From a virus, in UHGV virus genome UHGV-0299153: a DNA stretch of 64,000 nt; one strand, given 5' to 3'. The notes under the pieces were generated by a model, which saw only the letters and a list, made by a program, of their open reading frames with translations, searched no databases and had not been told where the DNA came from. A program made the translations under genes and the position numbers. Below, piece by piece: positions 45,415-52,577 of the stretch (its first letter is position 1; each line of letters begins with the position of its first letter).

Positions 45415-46176
45415 TTACAGTTCCATAAAGTTTTCTACAGTTTCAATAAATGCTTTATCAGAGAAAGCGTCAACAGCACCGTTAAACCATACAGGGATCC
45501 CGCGATCCTCATATTGATAAAGGTCGCTACGTGAAATGCCACTTCCATCTGCACTCTGCGAATCATACTTGTTTACAATCAGCAGTTTTGTGCCTTTACA
45601 AGTAGCAGGAAACAATTCCCAGTTAAAATTAATAACTGTGTTAGAACAACCTACCAGGATCACCATATCATTGCTGGTAAGAGATGTCAACAGGTCATAC
45701 ATGTCTGTATACTTAGGAGCAACCTCACCGAAGAACACTACATTGGGCTTAACCCAGGTATACTTGCCTGTATCTACCTCCGTGTATCCGATATTTTTAA
45801 TTACATCATTACCTTCAGCATCTTCGTAGGTGATTTCAGGCAAATACCCGTGGACATGTAAAATATCTTCATGTTTTACACCAGCACGCTCCAGCAAATC
45901 ATCTACATTGGTAGTAAGGTTGATCACACGACCATACCAGCGGGAATACCACTCAGCGATCCGAAGATGTGCAAGGTTAGGATCAACACTGCCCAGAGCT
46001 ACACGACGTGCATTGTAAAAGTCATGCACCTTATAGTAGTTCTTGGCAAAGGTGTGGATGTTGCACACCTCATCGATGCTGAAATTCTCCCACATTGCAG
46101 TGCTACCAGATCGGAAAGTGGGAATACCAGATTCAGCGCTCAAACCAGCACCGGAGATAATAATCAGTCGTCGCAT
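45415..46176 (-). CDS. Sir2-family (sirtuin) NAD-dependent enzyme
   Basis: GAGLSAESGIPTFR, TTNVDDLLERAG, VHG (catalytic His), VVFFGE, VLVGCS; no CxxC zinc-ribbon pairs. Confidence 0.8.
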   Translation of the reverse strand: MRRLIIISGAGLSAESGIPTFRSGSTAMWENFSIDEVCNIHTFAKNYYKVHDFYNARRVALGSVDPNLAHLRIAEWYSRWYGRVINLTTNVDDLLERAGVKHEDILHVHGYLPEITYEDAEGNDVIKNIGYTEVDTGKYTWVKPNVVFFGEVAPKYTDMYDLLTSLTSNDMVILVGCSNTVINFNWELFPATCKGTKLLIVNKYDSQSADGSGISRSDLYQYEDRGIPVWFNGAVDAFSDKAFIETVENFMEL

Positions 46177-46184
46177 AAGTGTCC

Positions 46185-46535
46185 TCAGTAGATGTTTTGT
46201 TTAATCTCTATTCCAAACTTCTTGAATGAGTCAGCAGCAAGCATAAATTTACGAGCTGCCGATGGATTAGAAGTATGCACGAAAATAATCACGTTGTCAA
46301 TAAGTGGTGGCTTTCCGAATACAAGTTTCTCCTCTAGCGCAGAGAAGCAGTCGTACCCTTCAAGCACTTCACCTAGGTCATTGTCAAAATACCACTCAGA
46401 TACGCGTCTGTAGAGCTTTCTCTTATCATTAAGAAAATCCATAAACTCAGAAGAATTCTTTAGCCACAGAGCGTCTGGGAGTCCATAATCTGACGGATCT
46501 CTAAAATCATCAAGCCACACAATCCACTTCTTCAT
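46185..46535 (-). CDS. hypothetical protein (116 aa), possible receiver-like fold
   Basis: ORF track; KWIVWLDDFRDP N-terminus; 4-nt overlap with RNA ligase gene. Confidence 0.45.
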   Translation of the reverse strand: MKKWIVWLDDFRDPSDYGLPDALWLKNSSEFMDFLNDKRKLYRRVSEWYFDNDLGEVLEGYDCFSALEEKLVFGKPPLIDNVIIFVHTSNPSAARKFMLAADSFKKFGIEIKQNIY

Positions 46536-47467
46536 TGCATATAGTCCTCGTTGTGGAAATAGTAGTCCAGTATCTCACGACGCTCCTGCTCTAATAAGCA
46601 ATTCCACACATCTTCTGTACAGTTGCTACGAATAAATTTTACCATACCGTAAAACTCTTCGTCAACACGTTTAAAGATATCATCATCCCAAATCTTCCAA
46701 GCTTTACCCCTCATTACGGCCTTCCGTGCCAGATAGTATGGAGACTTGATCTTCAGCTGCAGATCATAAGGGTAGTAAGGCTTACGAATCATATACCCTT
46801 CACCTCTTGTTTCTGCAGCTAATTCTTTTGCATAGCTGAACGGAATTTCACGCACAGTGTGAGGACGTTTTGCACCAAGGTATTTGGCAATCCCATCTAA
46901 AGCTGCTTCTGGTAGCATTATTCCAGAATCATTATATCTGCAACCTATCAAATATGCGCCATGATCTTCCTGAACAATATGCGGATCTGAAGGGTGGCAA
47001 ATTTCAAACATGAATGTCATGTTTTCATTGCCCATAACCTTCTTGATAAGATCTAAATTACCACATTGCTCCCTGATGGTTTCTTTTGCGAGGTTACAAT
47101 ATGGGGAATCAAGAGACCCGGTTGTTGAGAACAATAGTTCACCTTTATGAGATGATACCACACCGAGGAATCCGTTCTTTTTCTCTACCGCAGTAACAAG
47201 TTTACTGTCCGGTAGGTTGGTGGAGTTTTCTCCTAAGTTGAATACTTTTGTGAAAGGCCATGCCACAACATTCCCCTCATTGCCAACAACAATACCTCGG
47301 CACTCCAGTAAACGCGGAGACAAATGCCACAGATTGTTGTAGAATACTTTTCTGGCATATTTATAGATCTTTAATCCAAGATCTGGATAATACCGACTGG
47401 TTACAAGACCTTTGTCTACTAGGTCATCTGCATTAAAATACTTCATCATACGTTCCTCATTTGTCAT
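46532..47467 (-). CDS. RNA ligase (nucleotidyltransferase superfamily; putative)
   Basis: Candidate motif I EKKNGF (KxNG), motif IV FMFEICHP, motif V LQLKIKSPYY; adjacent to kinase/phosphoesterase pair. Confidence 0.5.
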   Translation of the reverse strand: MTNEERMMKYFNADDLVDKGLVTSRYYPDLGLKIYKYARKVFYNNLWHLSPRLLECRGIVVGNEGNVVAWPFTKVFNLGENSTNLPDSKLVTAVEKKNGFLGVVSSHKGELLFSTTGSLDSPYCNLAKETIREQCGNLDLIKKVMGNENMTFMFEICHPSDPHIVQEDHGAYLIGCRYNDSGIMLPEAALDGIAKYLGAKRPHTVREIPFSYAKELAAETRGEGYMIRKPYYPYDLQLKIKSPYYLARKAVMRGKAWKIWDDDIFKRVDEEFYGMVKFIRSNCTEDVWNCLLEQERREILDYYFHNEDYMQ

Positions 47468-47510: not shown

Positions 47511-47539
47511 TTGAAATTAACAAAACAGTTAGGTATACT
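47511..47539 (+). promoter_or_regulatory. sigma70-like promoter at divergence point
   Basis: TTGAAA-17 bp-TATACT, 29 bp upstream of ATG 47568. Confidence 0.5.
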
Positions 47540-47567
47540 ATCATTAAAATTAAAACGGAGGATTGCT

Positions 47568-47978
47568 ATGTCTAAAATGCTATATATCGTGCGTGGTCTG
47601 CCAGGGTCTGGCAAATCAACACTGGCAAATGCGCTATCTTTAGAAGGTCTGTATCCACATTTTGAGAACGACATGTTCTGGTATGACGATGACGGCAATT
47701 ACAACTGGGATGCAAGTAAAGTAACACTCGCAGCAAAATGGTGCAAAGATAACGTAGAAGATATGATGCGTATGGGATACGACCGTATCGTGGTAAGCAA
47801 TACGTTTACAAAAGAAAAACATGTGCAGGAATATGTTGACATGGCAATCAGTCACGGGTATAGTTATACCGTGATCGTGGTTGAAAACCGCCACGGTAAT
47901 AAAAGCATTCATGATGTTCCAGACAAGGTTGTGGATCGTATGGAACGCCAGCTTAAAAACTGCATTAAACTTAAATGA
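47568..47978 (+). CDS. P-loop polynucleotide kinase-like protein
   Basis: N-terminal LYIVRGLPGSGKSTLANAL P-loop typical of polynucleotide-kinase (PNK)-type kinases; ACGGAGG SD. Confidence 0.55.
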   Translation: MSKMLYIVRGLPGSGKSTLANALSLEGLYPHFENDMFWYDDDGNYNWDASKVTLAAKWCKDNVEDMMRMGYDRIVVSNTFTKEKHVQEYVDMAISHGYSYTVIVVENRHGNKSIHDVPDKVVDRMERQLKNCIKLK

Positions 47979-47985
47979 GGAATGT

Positions 47986-48540
47986 ATGAAATACTTTGTA
48001 ACAAGCGATACACACTTTCTCCACCAGCGGGTCATGGAGTTTGATTCATGTCAAAAACACAGATCTCAGTATGATCACAATCTTGACAGTATGAATGCGG
48101 GAATCATCACCAAGTGGAACTCTGTTGTGTCACCTGCAGACACTGTGTTCCACTTGGGAGATATTGCATGCACTAATGATAAGAATATCAACAAATTGCT
48201 CCCAGATATTCTAAATATGTTGAACGGACATATTATTCTTGTTCGTGGCAACCATGACACAAGGACGACTGTCAAAATTATGAAAGAGTTCGGTCATGAG
48301 GTTGTAGATTATTACGAGCTTCGCCACAACAAGAATTTGATCTGTATGAGCCATTACCAGTTTGCAAAGTGGAACAGAAAGCCTCACGGATCAGTCCAAC
48401 TGTTCGGTCATGCTCACGGAACCACACAACAGTTGTTTGGCAGGCAGCTTGATGTCGGTTGGGATGTGTGGGGGAGACTCTTACCATTAGAAGAGGCATA
48501 CCGTATTGCAATGAGTTTTGATATTGACAGCAGGGAGTAA
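47986..48540 (+). CDS. calcineurin-like metallophosphoesterase
   Basis: TSDTHF (DxH), LGDIA (GD), VRGNHD (GNHD/E), GHAH blocks. Confidence 0.75.
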   Translation: MKYFVTSDTHFLHQRVMEFDSCQKHRSQYDHNLDSMNAGIITKWNSVVSPADTVFHLGDIACTNDKNINKLLPDILNMLNGHIILVRGNHDTRTTVKIMKEFGHEVVDYYELRHNKNLICMSHYQFAKWNRKPHGSVQLFGHAHGTTQQLFGRQLDVGWDVWGRLLPLEEAYRIAMSFDIDSRE

Positions 48541-51012: not shown

Positions 51013-51351
51013 ATGGCGGATACAACTAAAAAGCGTCGCCGTAGAGGCAGACCTCTGAAAGAGGAGTCTAACGCCATTCAGCTAGAGAAGAACATCCTTG
51101 ATATGAAGGAATCTTTTATAGCGATGGTTCCAGAAGCTCACAAAGTTTTAAGAGAGCTGATGTTGGACCCGAAAACCAAACAAAATATTCGTCAAAGCAT
51201 TGCAGAGTATGTTCTTGATAAGGCAGACCGAATGCAGGAAGAATATGATGAGATGTTTGGTGAAGAGGAAGAGGTGGTAGTGGAAGAGGCTGAAAAACCA
51301 GCACCTTTTATGCCATTTACTACAGAAATACAGCCTGTTAGCAATAGCTAA
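51013..51351 (+). CDS. hypothetical DNA-binding protein (basic N-terminus KKRRRRGRP); possible terminase small subunit
   Basis: Internal ATG of ORF 50956-51351; strong promoter and SD; upstream of tRNAs and terminase large subunit. Confidence 0.5.
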   Translation: MADTTKKRRRRGRPLKEESNAIQLEKNILDMKESFIAMVPEAHKVLRELMLDPKTKQNIRQSIAEYVLDKADRMQEEYDEMFGEEEEVVVEEAEKPAPFMPFTTEIQPVSNS

Positions 51352-51447
51352 AATATTTTCTTGACAAACTTTGCTTAACAGTGTAATATTGTAAACATGG
51401 TCTCCCACCTTTTCTGGCGGCTAAGGTGTAAAAGAAAGCCACCCAGT

Positions 51448-51522
51448 GCCCTGTTAGCTTAGTGGATAAAGCAGCGGCCTTCTAAGCCGTTGACACTGGT
51501 TCGAGTCCAGTACGGGGTGCCA
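51448..51522 (+). tRNA. tRNA-Arg (anticodon TCT)
   Basis: Cloverleaf folded by hand: acceptor GCCCTGT/ACGGGGT, anticodon loop CTTCTAA, T-arm ACTGG-TTCGAGT-CCAGT, encoded CCA. Confidence 0.75.
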
Positions 51523-51526
51523 AATT

Positions 51527-51613
51527 GGGGAGTTATCCCGTAGAGGTAGCGGTGTAGACTGTAAATCTATTGTCATTGCGACTCGGGTGGTTCGACTCCA
51601 CCACTCCCCACCA
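51527..51613 (+). tRNA. tRNA-Tyr (anticodon GTA), type II
   Basis: Acceptor GGGGAGT/ACTCCCC, anticodon loop CTGTAAA, long variable arm, T-arm GGTGG-TTCGACT-CCACC, encoded CCA. Confidence 0.8.
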
Positions 51614-51728
51614 AATTTATATTTTTTAGATGCATAAATAATACAGATAATGGCATTGATATTTATCGTCGTTTATACTAGTCACTAACTGCTCGAAAAT
51701 CAGTGTCATTATCAGTATAATTTATAAA

Positions 51729-51819
51729 GGAGGGTAGGGAGCAATGGTGCTCAAGCGGTCTTGAAAACCGTCCCGTTGAGGATGACTCGATGATGGTTCG
51801 ATTCCATTACTCTCCGCCA
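51729..51819 (+). tRNA. tRNA-Ser (anticodon TGA), type II
   Basis: Acceptor GGAGGGT/ACTCTCC, anticodon loop CTTGAAA, long variable arm, encoded CCA. Confidence 0.75.
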
Positions 51820-51917
51820 CATTGTTGACCTTGTAATTAAGCGAAAGCCGGAAGCAGAACCGGATTATCAAATGTTACAGTCGTCATCGCCGACTAGCAA
51901 CATGGTCAACATATTGA

Positions 51918-52014
51918 GCTAGGTAAGCCCTTTGGCAAGGGCGAGGATTTTTAATCCTGAAAATAGACGAGGTAGTCGTTGAATACATAGGTGGTTCGAT
52001 TCCACCGCCTAGCA
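51918..52014 (+). tRNA. atypical tRNA-like gene (anticodon loop TTTTTAA, apparent UUU; about 30-nt variable region)
   Basis: Acceptor GCTAGGT/GCCTAGC, D-arm GCCC-TTTGGCAA-GGGC, T-arm GGTGG-TTCGATT-CCACC; only a 4-bp anticodon stem; no encoded CCA. Confidence 0.45.
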
Positions 52015-52021
52015 CCTTTTT

Positions 52022-52097
52022 GCTGATGTAGCACAATTGGTAGTGCAATTGATTTGTAATCAATAGGTTGCGGGTTCAAGTCCTGCCATCAGCACCA
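52022..52097 (+). tRNA. tRNA-Thr (anticodon TGT)
   Basis: Acceptor GCTGATG/CATCAGC, anticodon arm ATTGA-TTTGTAA-TCAAT, encoded CCA. Confidence 0.75.
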
Positions 52098-52098
52098 T

Positions 52099-52173
52099 GG
52101 CCCTGTAGCTGGAAGGTTCAAGCAAGCGACTCATAATCGCCAGACGGTGGTTCAATTCCACCCAGGGCCACCA
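52099..52173 (+). tRNA. tRNA-Met (anticodon CAT; could be an Ile-lysidine type)
   Basis: Acceptor GGCCCTG/CAGGGCC, anticodon loop CTCATAA, T-arm GGTGG-TTCAATT-CCACC, encoded CCA. Confidence 0.75.
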
Positions 52174-52184
52174 AATAGTAGATA

Positions 52185-52261
52185 CTCCGCGTAGCTCAGC
52201 TTGGTAGAGCGCCTGATTTGGGATCAGGAGGTCGAGTGTTCGAATCACTCCGTGGAGACCA
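52185..52261 (+). tRNA. tRNA-Pro (anticodon TGG)
   Basis: Acceptor CTCCGCG/CGTGGAG (one GU), anticodon arm CCTGA-TTTGGGA-TCAGG, T-arm GAGTG-TTCGAAT-CACTC, encoded CCA. Confidence 0.75.
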
Positions 52262-52307
52262 CTTTCAGTTATACTTTAAACATATACAAACAAAAGGAAC
52301 CTTTAAA

Positions 52308-52577
52308 ATGTATACACTTAAAATTGTAGAGCGTGTAAATCCAACCCATACCGTAGATTTTCGTGACGATTTCAATCCTCTGGCTGTAAATCTTCGAGAG
52401 TCATATCATGAACTCAGCTGCGATGCAGTGGTGGTCTTTTTTGAAGACAACTCTGAAGGGGCGGTAGCTTGTGTTGTTGATAGTGAGCAGAAGTTTTATA
52501 TTTACAGAGATGTAGATGCATACTTGATGAATGAAAATGCAGTTACTGTTAGAATCATCCACCGAGTGCCTCGATAA
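52308..52577 (+). CDS. hypothetical protein (89 aa)
   Basis: Internal ATG of ORF 52218-52577 with AAGGAA SD; the longer ORF would overlap tRNA-Pro. Confidence 0.5.
   Translation: MYTLKIVERVNPTHTVDFRDDFNPLAVNLRESYHELSCDAVVVFFEDNSEGAVACVVDSEQKFYIYRDVDAYLMNENAVTVRIIHRVPR

Follow-up and report, generated by a model that had tools for sequence, protein, structure and literature searches.

A five-armed tRNA-like element in the tRNA clusters of rV5-like Escherichia phages and their relatives

A stretch of 64,000 nucleotides of the virus genome UHGV-0299153 (the window) was analysed around an irregular gene of its transfer RNA (tRNA) cluster. The window belongs to an rV5-like Escherichia phage of the genus Vequintavirus, and its region 51300-52400 is 99.9% identical to phage phiWec189. 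The element, located at positions 51918-52016 of the + strand, is a cloverleaf with an extra hairpin between its 'anticodon' and T arms. It is far beyond chance and represents a discrete family of sequences. We consider it probable that this is the functional gene of a phage-only, five-armed tRNA mimic, which is recognised as a tRNA and whose probable arena is the conflict with tRNA-cleaving host defences. As judged from the comparison of homologues, the body is under strong purifying selection, and the anticodon-like loop and the discriminator are under relaxed or diversifying change. Across the family, the element is not a conventional decoder.

The acceptor stem has seven base pairs, formed by GCTAGGT (51918-51924) and GCCTAGC (52007-52013), and its 5′ strand is followed by the linker A8-A9 (51925-51926). 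Here A8 replaces U8, which is near-universal among tRNAs. The D arm (51927-51942) presents a 6-bp stem, GCCCTT/AAGGGC, and a 4-nt loop, TGGC, in the style of tRNA-Sec, although a 4-bp stem with an 8-nt loop may be an alternative; the equivalent of G19 is at 51935 in this loop and its partner, the equivalent of C56, is at 51997. A single G (51943) leads to the 'anticodon' hairpin (51944-51958), in which the 4-bp stem AGGA (51944-51947)/TCCT (51955-51958) closes the loop TTTTTAA (51948-51954), with an apparent UUU at 51950-51952. The 31 nt between this stem and the T stem (51959-51989) comprise the A-rich linker GAAAATA (51959-51965), the fifth arm, which is a 5-bp hairpin GACGA-GGTAG-TCGTT (51966-51980), and a second single-stranded linker, GAATACATA (51981-51989). 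The T arm, GGTGG-TTCGATT-CCACC (51990-52006), is canonical, and the 3′ strand of the acceptor is followed by the discriminator A (52014) and by CC (52015-52016). The next base is a T, so the element of the window encodes no CCA and reads A-CC-UUUUU.

The Rfam tRNA model (RF00005) recognises the element with 31.0 bits, against a gathering score of 29 (E = 3.4e-4), whereas the four class-I tRNAs of the same cluster reach 60-76 bits. The Rfam alignment reproduces the fold with the 4-bp stem, with one anticodon-stem pair missing and an insertion of 26 nt in the variable region. The minimum-free-energy fold has the same five-helix shape (-37 kcal/mol, z = -3.82, 1/200 shuffles equally good). These results agree with a preliminary description of the interval 51918-52014, made from the letters of the window, which had recognised the acceptor, D and T arms of a cloverleaf, a 4-bp anticodon stem around TTTTTAA and about 30 nt before the T arm; its expression 'tRNA with an insertion' is a fair anatomical description. 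ARAGORN called 51918-52016 as 'tRNA-???' with a four-base anticodon, atcc. The alternative fold on which this call depends, with five A-U pairs presenting atcc, was rejected, as it is only 42% paired on the family alignment, shows no covariation and equals the shifted controls. Neither ARAGORN nor Rfam returned a standard Leu or Ser fold for the interval, and the alternative helix of ARAGORN is unconserved, which disposes of the suggestion that this could be a mis-folded type-II tRNA.

A covariance model built from the family scored its members at 83-123 bits and ordinary long-arm (type-II) tRNAs at no more than 33, and detected a single copy per phage. Among the features of canonical tRNAs, the element has the 7-bp acceptor, the 5-bp T stem, the UUCRAUU T loop and the G18-G19/U55-C56 elbow; it lacks U8, a 5-bp anticodon stem and a variable region of 4-5 nt or a compact arm, and its D arm can form 6 bp with a 4-nt loop, compared with the 3-4 bp and 7-11 nt of canonical tRNAs. 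The window taken alone has the canonical 7-nt anticodon loop with U33 and R37, but the family of 30 does not keep it, nor does it share one anticodon.

The strongest evidence for a functional body comes from the pairing of its helices across homologues. In 19 distinct sequences, 418/418 pair cells of the acceptor, D, outer three anticodon and T pairs were standard, and nine pairs had changed on both sides. With 30 distinct sequences and a model-guided alignment, 660/660 core pair cells were paired and 11/22 pairs presented compensatory changes, while controls with the partners slid by 1-3 columns were paired at 35-50% (35-51% when both alignments are considered). The seven acceptor pairs (five compensatory), the six D-stem pairs (three compensatory, with two inner U:A pairs that never vary) and the five T-stem pairs (one compensatory) were 100% paired in the 30 homologues. 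The 'anticodon' stem also covaries, since pair 27:42 is A:U, G:C or G:U, and the fourth pair is A:U, C:G or U:A according to the lineage. In addition, the tertiary elbow pair G19:C56 (51935:51997), the only tertiary pair tested, is G:C in 23 sequences and U:A in seven. The latter combine a D loop TGTC with a T loop TTAGATT, instead of TGGC with TTCGATT, and belong to Mydovirus and metagenomic relatives. These compensatory substitutions in the helices and in the elbow indicate that selection acts on the L-shaped tRNA body. They also contradict the idea that this is a pseudo-tRNA in the sense of a decaying gene.

Each of the 19 sequences folds individually into the same five-helix shape, and the extra hairpin is predicted at this position in every homologue, in three styles. 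Escherichia phages have a 5-bp stem with a 5-nt loop, in which an A:U pair is replaced by G:C between rV5 and Av-05; Seunavirus presents the 11-nt loop AGCGUGGAGUR, and Henunavirus, Mydovirus and an N4-like phage the 12-nt loop GAAYUAACAGUA, both with differing flanking stems. The unpaired positions are also constrained. A8 is invariant in the family alignments, with R9 variable next to it, as are the G on each side of the 'anticodon' hairpin (that at 51943 in 30/30 sequences), the AAA of the upstream linker, which is unpaired in 19/19 individual folds, and the ATACATA of the downstream linker (30/30 sequences). A search of the window for antisense targets of the invariant AAUACAUA linker returned three complementary sites, including the linker itself, for 2.4 expected, and, by eye, no loop-loop (kissing) contact of the anticodon-like loop with that of the extra arm was consistent across lineages.

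The homologues come from phages of several genera and have been annotated in discordant ways. BLAST with the element retrieved 124 phage records, almost all with an identity of 95% or more, in addition to Avunavirus at ~92% and a Seunavirus at 74%, and another variant of the element is present in 33 phage records. The family was extended by IMG/VR motif scans and by a second BLAST with a divergent variant (IMG/VR L029), and now comprises 30 distinct sequences, drawn from six genera of the Vequintavirinae, from an unrelated N4-like phage of Salmonella and from metagenomes. The genera include Vequintavirus, Avunavirus, Henunavirus (Erwinia), Seunavirus (Salmonella, Cronobacter) and Mydovirus (Klebsiella, Raoultella), and the element is kept in genera that shed most of their tRNAs. 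The N4-like podovirus, Salmonella phage vB_SenP_UTK0002 (Schitoviridae), carries it at L090:2001-2108, between tRNA-Ser(tga) and tRNA-Asn(gtt), with 85% identity to the IMG/VR L029 variant. Its presence in the tRNA cluster of this phage points to horizontal transfer between unrelated phage families. A metagenome scan with the invariant linker plus the T arm found 20 loci and 12 additional variants, and the same scan in one genome each of 185,579 bacterial and archaeal species gave zero matches. The matches in phages and their absence from these cellular genomes indicate a family confined to lytic phages and moved between unrelated lineages.

Other anchors were less specific, since the T arm alone retrieved mostly ordinary tRNA-Tyr genes, the D arm matched coding sequence, and the pattern TTTGGCAA...ACTAACAG was too loose, with more than 120 chance matches. 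One locus, L017:30-136 (IMG/VR contig 3300046009_009581), has a 6-bp/4-nt D arm with TTTGGCAA and the ACTAACAG motif in the extra region, and reached 40 bits with the family model, below the members. It was considered as a distant member and left out of the family counts, as its linkers are unlike those of the members and it folds no better than shuffled sequence (z = -0.86).

In the original rV5 record and paper, which list six tRNAs, the element is unannotated. Other public annotations of the same gene are 'tRNA-OTHER, ???(atcc)', 'tRNA-Lys, AAA' (in phages of the BASEL collection) and 'tRNA-Stop(tta)', and in the record of Erwinia phage Hena1 the homologue is 'tRNA-sup(tca)'. A literature search found no description of the element.

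In the same comparisons, region 51300-52400 matched 738 records of the phage collection, many of them from Tequatrovirus (T4-like) at 80-95% identity; set against the 124 matches of the element, this indicates that some of the conventional tRNAs are shared or exchanged among very different coliphages. Eighteen 'Campylobacter phage' records (GenBank MG065646-MG065677, host C. jejuni) are ~99% identical to rV5-like Escherichia phages over this region, and are probably mislabelled or contaminating coliphages.

The anticodon-like loop behaves differently from the body. Read with a 4-bp stem in the 30 sequences, it occurs in nine forms of 7 or 8 nt: CCAUCCAG in ten sequences, CAUCAAA in six, UUUUUAA in five, UUUAUAA in three, UAUCAAA in two and four other forms in one each. 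Only U34 and A37 are constant. U33 is present in eight sequences, confined to two genera of Escherichia phages, and is replaced by A or C elsewhere; the loops of Seunavirus and Mydovirus have 8 nt, which a fifth pair would reduce to 6. The apparent UUU of a tRNA-Lys, proposed in the preliminary description, stands for Vequintavirus and does not extend to the other lineages, where the corresponding positions read UAU, UCC or UCA, often in a loop of the wrong length or with no U33. In the sister genus Avunavirus, for example, the loop has UAU with U73 or C73. From these alignments, no anticodon is selected across the family.

The discriminator is A, U or C, with U73 in most lineages and A73 only in Vequintavirus. 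It differs even between identical or near-identical relatives (EspYZU15 and SPLA5a; Av-05 in relation to TH18 and L107), and this drift is unlike the behaviour of an aminoacylation identity element. The UUU anticodon and A73 are identity elements of lysyl-tRNA synthetase (LysRS); the element of the window has both, a combination that holds only in Vequintavirus. While 6/6 conventional tRNAs of the window cluster encode CCA, the element does not, and in most other lineages it does encode U-CCA. ARAGORN detects the element in Vequintavirus only. Phages with the UCC loop have a conventional tRNA-Gly(tcc) in the same cluster, and Hena1, which has a UCA loop, also encodes a conventional tRNA-Lys and a tRNA-Gly. 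For the lineages with a UCA loop, opal suppression was considered and rejected, as UGA closes 7/35 long open reading frames (ORFs) in Hena1, compared with 10/37 in the window. A search for a parent isoacceptor, in which the element without its extra arm was compared with co-resident tRNAs, gave best scores of 14-16 of ~71, scattered among them, and no single tRNA type aligned better than the others.

The element is located in the cluster Arg(tct)-Tyr(gta)-Ser(tga)-element-Thr(tgt)-Met/Ile2(cat)-Pro(tgg) (51448-52261, + strand), identified with ARAGORN and Rfam. A sigma-70-like promoter, TTGACA-17-TAATAT (51361-51389, + strand), precedes tRNA-Arg, at a place equivalent to that of P(tRNA) in the rV5 record, and is the likely start of a transcript that includes the element; no credible terminator was found within the cluster. 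In the window, 5 nt separate the element from tRNA-Thr downstream of it, and in all the other lineages its distance from a tRNA is 1-5 nt. Its position in the cluster varies among them: the preceding tRNA is Ser, Thr, Ile or Leu, and Thr, Asn or a long spacer follows.

An RNA-repair set, identified with Pfam, lies 3.4-5.7 kb upstream of the element. It includes a cREC_REC protein with a cyclic-phosphate-processing receiver domain (46185-46535, - strand), an RNA ligase of the T4 Rnl1 type (46532-47467, - strand), a P-loop kinase (47511-47978, + strand) and a metallophosphoesterase (47881-48540, + strand), and the BASEL annotation of a 99% identical phage presents the RNA ligase, a polynucleotide kinase and a phosphoesterase. 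In T4, such repair equipment reverses the damage caused by anticodon nucleases. A SIR2-family protein is encoded near this set, at 45415-46176.

One phage, V18, has lost the intact gene. At L007:1451-1547, the 5′ part of its tRNA-Tyr is joined to the last 46 nt of the element, and this chimera scored 34.5 bits with the family model, below the members. The deletion occurred via the microhomology GTC(A/G)TTG and removed tRNA-Ser together with both intact genes. As V18 is viable, the element is not essential for plaque formation.

Other irregularities were observed in these clusters. The spacers flanking tRNA-Ser fold better than shuffles (51614-51728, z = -4.3; 51820-51917, z = -2.8), with a 9-bp helix closing a multi-branch core in the second, and a promoter-like TCGAAA-17-TATAAT (51693-51721) stands directly before tRNA-Ser; the spacers could be additional small structured RNAs, or elements involved in processing. 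In relatives, several cluster tRNAs (L091:1922-1998, L092:1923-1998, L096:1892-1966, L096:3595-3664 and L054:5994-6079) are called 'tRNA-???' by ARAGORN, with anticodons of two or four bases (agat, ga, gt, ggca), and close relatives have normal Ile(gat) or Ser(cga) genes, so changes of anticodon-loop length seem common in these phage tRNA clusters. In the genera other than Vequintavirus, an unannotated spacer of ~190-210 nt follows the element, before the next called tRNA (L089:2109-2320, L004:1300-1500, L006:1606-1796). Rfam and ARAGORN gave no match on this spacer; by eye, its ends resemble tRNA halves (GTGCATTAGCTCAG ... GGTGGAGTCACCATGCAAC in L006) around a large insertion.

With respect to function, we propose that the element would share the transcript of the phage tRNAs that starts at the promoter preceding tRNA-Arg and, given its distance of 1-5 nt from tRNAs in all lineages, that it would be released by the tRNA-processing enzymes. 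The RNA would then act through its recognition as a tRNA by some tRNA-binding protein, and not through decoding. In Vequintavirus, the loop UUUUUAA and A73 would copy tRNA-Lys(UUU), and the RNA would serve as a decoy or competitor for U34-type tRNAs against defences of the PrrC or PARIS type. The PARIS nuclease AriB acts on the Lys(UUU), Thr(UGU) and Asn(GUU) tRNAs; its cleavage site is in the anticodon stem, it contacts this stem and the D loop, and phage T5 escapes it by variant tRNAs (PMC11464382, PMC12409363). The element adjoins tRNA-Thr(UGU) in the window and tRNA-Asn(GUU) in the N4-like phage. The Lys-like loop with A73, the RNA-repair set and the adjacency to tRNA-Thr(UGU) make tRNA-cleaving host defences the most likely arena, and we hold with moderate confidence that the Vequintavirus element is a Lys-like decoy or competitor in such a conflict. 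A decoy substrate for anticodon nucleases, already suggested in the preliminary description, would in our view be the best functional lead.

Several points weigh against this proposal. The literature search returned no expression, processing, charging or phenotype data for the element. Against a catalytic nuclease, a decoy that acts stoichiometrically offers weak protection. Both the repair module and the proximity to tRNA-Thr or tRNA-Asn are circumstantial evidence, and this proximity may simply reflect inherited synteny. The viability of V18 after the loss of the intact gene implies a function that is conditional at best. Moreover, the Vequintavirus loop is fully tRNA-like (7 nt, U33, A37) and, with A73, compatible with genuine decoding of Lys codons. 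Extended to the whole family, the proposal would describe an anti-defence RNA, a tRNA-shaped decoy or inhibitor whose conserved body would ensure its processing and recognition as a tRNA, and whose hypervariable loop would imitate the anticodon loops of U34 tRNAs (Lys-, Gly- or Sec-like, with U33 usually disabled). Such an RNA would titrate, mis-trigger or block anticodon nucleases, or feed the phage RNA-repair enzymes, its loop would be retuned for each host genus, and the gene would be exchanged between unrelated phages. In this general form we regard it as rather unlikely.

The main rival explanation, possible but doubtful, is that the element functions in Vequintavirus as an elongator tRNA-Lys(UUU) that bears an additional arm, charged by LysRS via UUU and A73 and resistant, through its divergent anticodon stem and D arm, to the host nucleases that destroy host tRNA-Lys, like the T5 tRNA-Lys against PARIS. 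The 7-nt loop UUUUUAA with U33, UUU and A37, the restriction of A73 to Vequintavirus and the lack of another tRNA-Lys in rV5-like phages are in agreement with this role, and the records based on tRNAscan name the gene tRNA-Lys. It lies beside tRNA-Thr(UGU), and the tRNAs for Lys and Thr are the main targets of PARIS that phage tRNAs rescue. Translational activity is also reported for allo-tRNAs with Sec-like D arms (PMC5389517, PMC7590224). On the other hand, UAU with U73 or C73 in Avunavirus and the inability of the loops of the remaining family to decode normally imply that the conserved function predates a Lys role and does not need it. The 4-bp anticodon stem, A8 in place of U8, the 31-nt variable region with long unpaired linkers, the absence of the CCA encoded by all six neighbours and the low Rfam score in relation to the four class-I tRNAs of the cluster are also unfavourable to a working tRNA-Lys. 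An RNA of the allo-tRNA type, charged independently of its anticodon (for example by SerRS via the long arm and U73) and inserting an amino acid at UGA, GGA or AAA according to the lineage, appears very improbable. The apparently Sec-like D arm, the long extra arm, U73 in most lineages and the diverse 'anticodons' are traits listed for allo-tRNAs (PMC5389517), and Erwinia phage records carry the annotation tRNA-sup(tca). However, the acceptor/T branch is 7/5, and not 8/4 or 9/3, the anticodon stem is shorter instead of longer, and most loops have A33 or C33, or 6 or 8 nt. The 7-9 unpaired nt on each side separate the extra hairpin from the core, unlike an arm read by SerRS, and UGA is an ordinary stop in Hena1, as mentioned above.

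It is also improbable that the element acts in cis, its tRNA shape recruiting RNase P and similar enzymes to organise the maturation or stability of the tRNA transcript, or that the precursor is cut into a small regulatory RNA. The constant location inside tRNA clusters, close to a neighbouring tRNA, fits such a role, as do the structured neighbouring spacers and the conserved A/U-rich single-stranded linkers, which resemble sites of the RNase E type. Nevertheless, the position in the cluster shifts between lineages, the gene has moved to an unrelated phage, and a processing aid needs neither a covarying elbow pair, nor an anticodon-like hairpin, nor an encoded CCA; complementary targets of the invariant linker are also not in excess in the window. 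Finally, a decaying tRNA pseudogene or a functionless prediction artefact is hardly credible. The marginal Rfam score (31 versus 29), the inconsistent public annotations and the viability of V18 speak for it; the perfect pairing with 11 compensatory pairs in 30 distinct sequences, the invariant single-stranded blocks, the retention where most tRNAs are shed and the transfer to an unrelated phage family speak against it.

Immune systems that cleave tRNAs, and the phage tRNAs by which they are defeated, are under active study. To our knowledge, phages counter such immunity with repair enzymes or with conventional tRNAs that carry a few protective substitutions, and a conserved, mobile and phage-only RNA, with a strict tRNA body and a variable anticodon loop, would be a different kind of player. 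It can be tested directly in those phages of the BASEL collection that have it. The element is also a recurrent annotation problem, as the same gene appears in GenBank as nothing, tRNA-OTHER, tRNA-Lys or tRNA-TERM. A dedicated covariance model would correct this and stop spurious 'suppressor tRNA' and 'tRNA-Lys' calls from entering codon-usage analyses.

Comparisons with known systems revealed partial similarities in each case. The type-II bacterial tRNAs (Ser, Leu, Tyr) share with the element the 7/5 branch, the GG of the D loop, the UUCGAUU T loop, a hairpin between the anticodon and T arms and the location in tRNA clusters. They differ from it in several respects, since the extra hairpin of the element is flanked by 7 and 9 unpaired nt within a variable region of 31-41 nt, its D arm is 6 bp/4 nt, it has A8 and an anticodon stem of 4-5 bp, and its unconserved loop includes no Leu, Ser or Tyr anticodon. 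Bacterial tRNA-Sec (RF01852) presents a 6-bp D stem with a tetraloop, which the element can form, and like the element a long extra arm, and the CAUCAAA loop of some lineages differs from the CUUCAAA of E. coli tRNA-Sec at position 33 only. Unlike tRNA-Sec, the element has a 7/5 branch instead of 8/5 (13 bp) and no G73, and UCA is absent in the window and present only in some lineages. A tRNA-Sec identity was rejected, as RF01852 gave 24-39 bits, against a gathering score of 47, which is no better than for the neighbouring Ser and Tyr tRNAs, and UGA is not avoided.

Among RNAs that keep the tRNA elbow and acceptor for tRNA enzymes without normal decoding are the transfer-messenger RNA (tmRNA) and YrlA, a Y RNA genetically linked to RNA repair. 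Phage T4 also encodes species 1 and 2 RNAs, which are stable RNAs of unknown function co-transcribed with tRNAs. The Rfam models of tmRNA and YrlA gave no match over the element at E <= 1, and the element differs from both RNAs in keeping all four tRNA arms plus one, with no mRNA-like domain or Ro-binding stem.

The allo-tRNAs of Mukai et al. 2017 (PMC5389517) are bacterial; their branch is 8/4 or 9/3, their anticodon stems are longer, and they were proposed to be suppressors 'and/or regulatory noncoding RNAs'. The traits described there that also occur in the element are the apparently Sec-like D arm, the long variable arm, U73, the many anticodons and the clusters of irregular tRNAs; as for the allo-tRNA trait of G73 or U73, most lineages have U73, the window has A73 and some have C73. 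The element is distinguished from them by its 7/5 branch, short anticodon stem, long single-stranded linkers and restriction to phages. The T5 tRNA-Lys(UUU) that acts against PARIS is likewise encoded in a phage cluster and presents a Lys(UUU)-type loop on a non-host stem, and neighbouring tRNAs (Thr, Asn, Pro) are also targets of defences (PMC11464382, PMC12409363). It is, however, a canonical tRNA of 76 nt with few substitutions from that of the host, and was shown to work (PMC11464382, PMC12409363), whereas the core of the element is non-canonical, a fifth arm is added to it, and the orthologues do not retain the Lys anticodon. The element falls outside the known-family definitions tested (canonical tRNA, tRNA-Sec and allo-tRNA).

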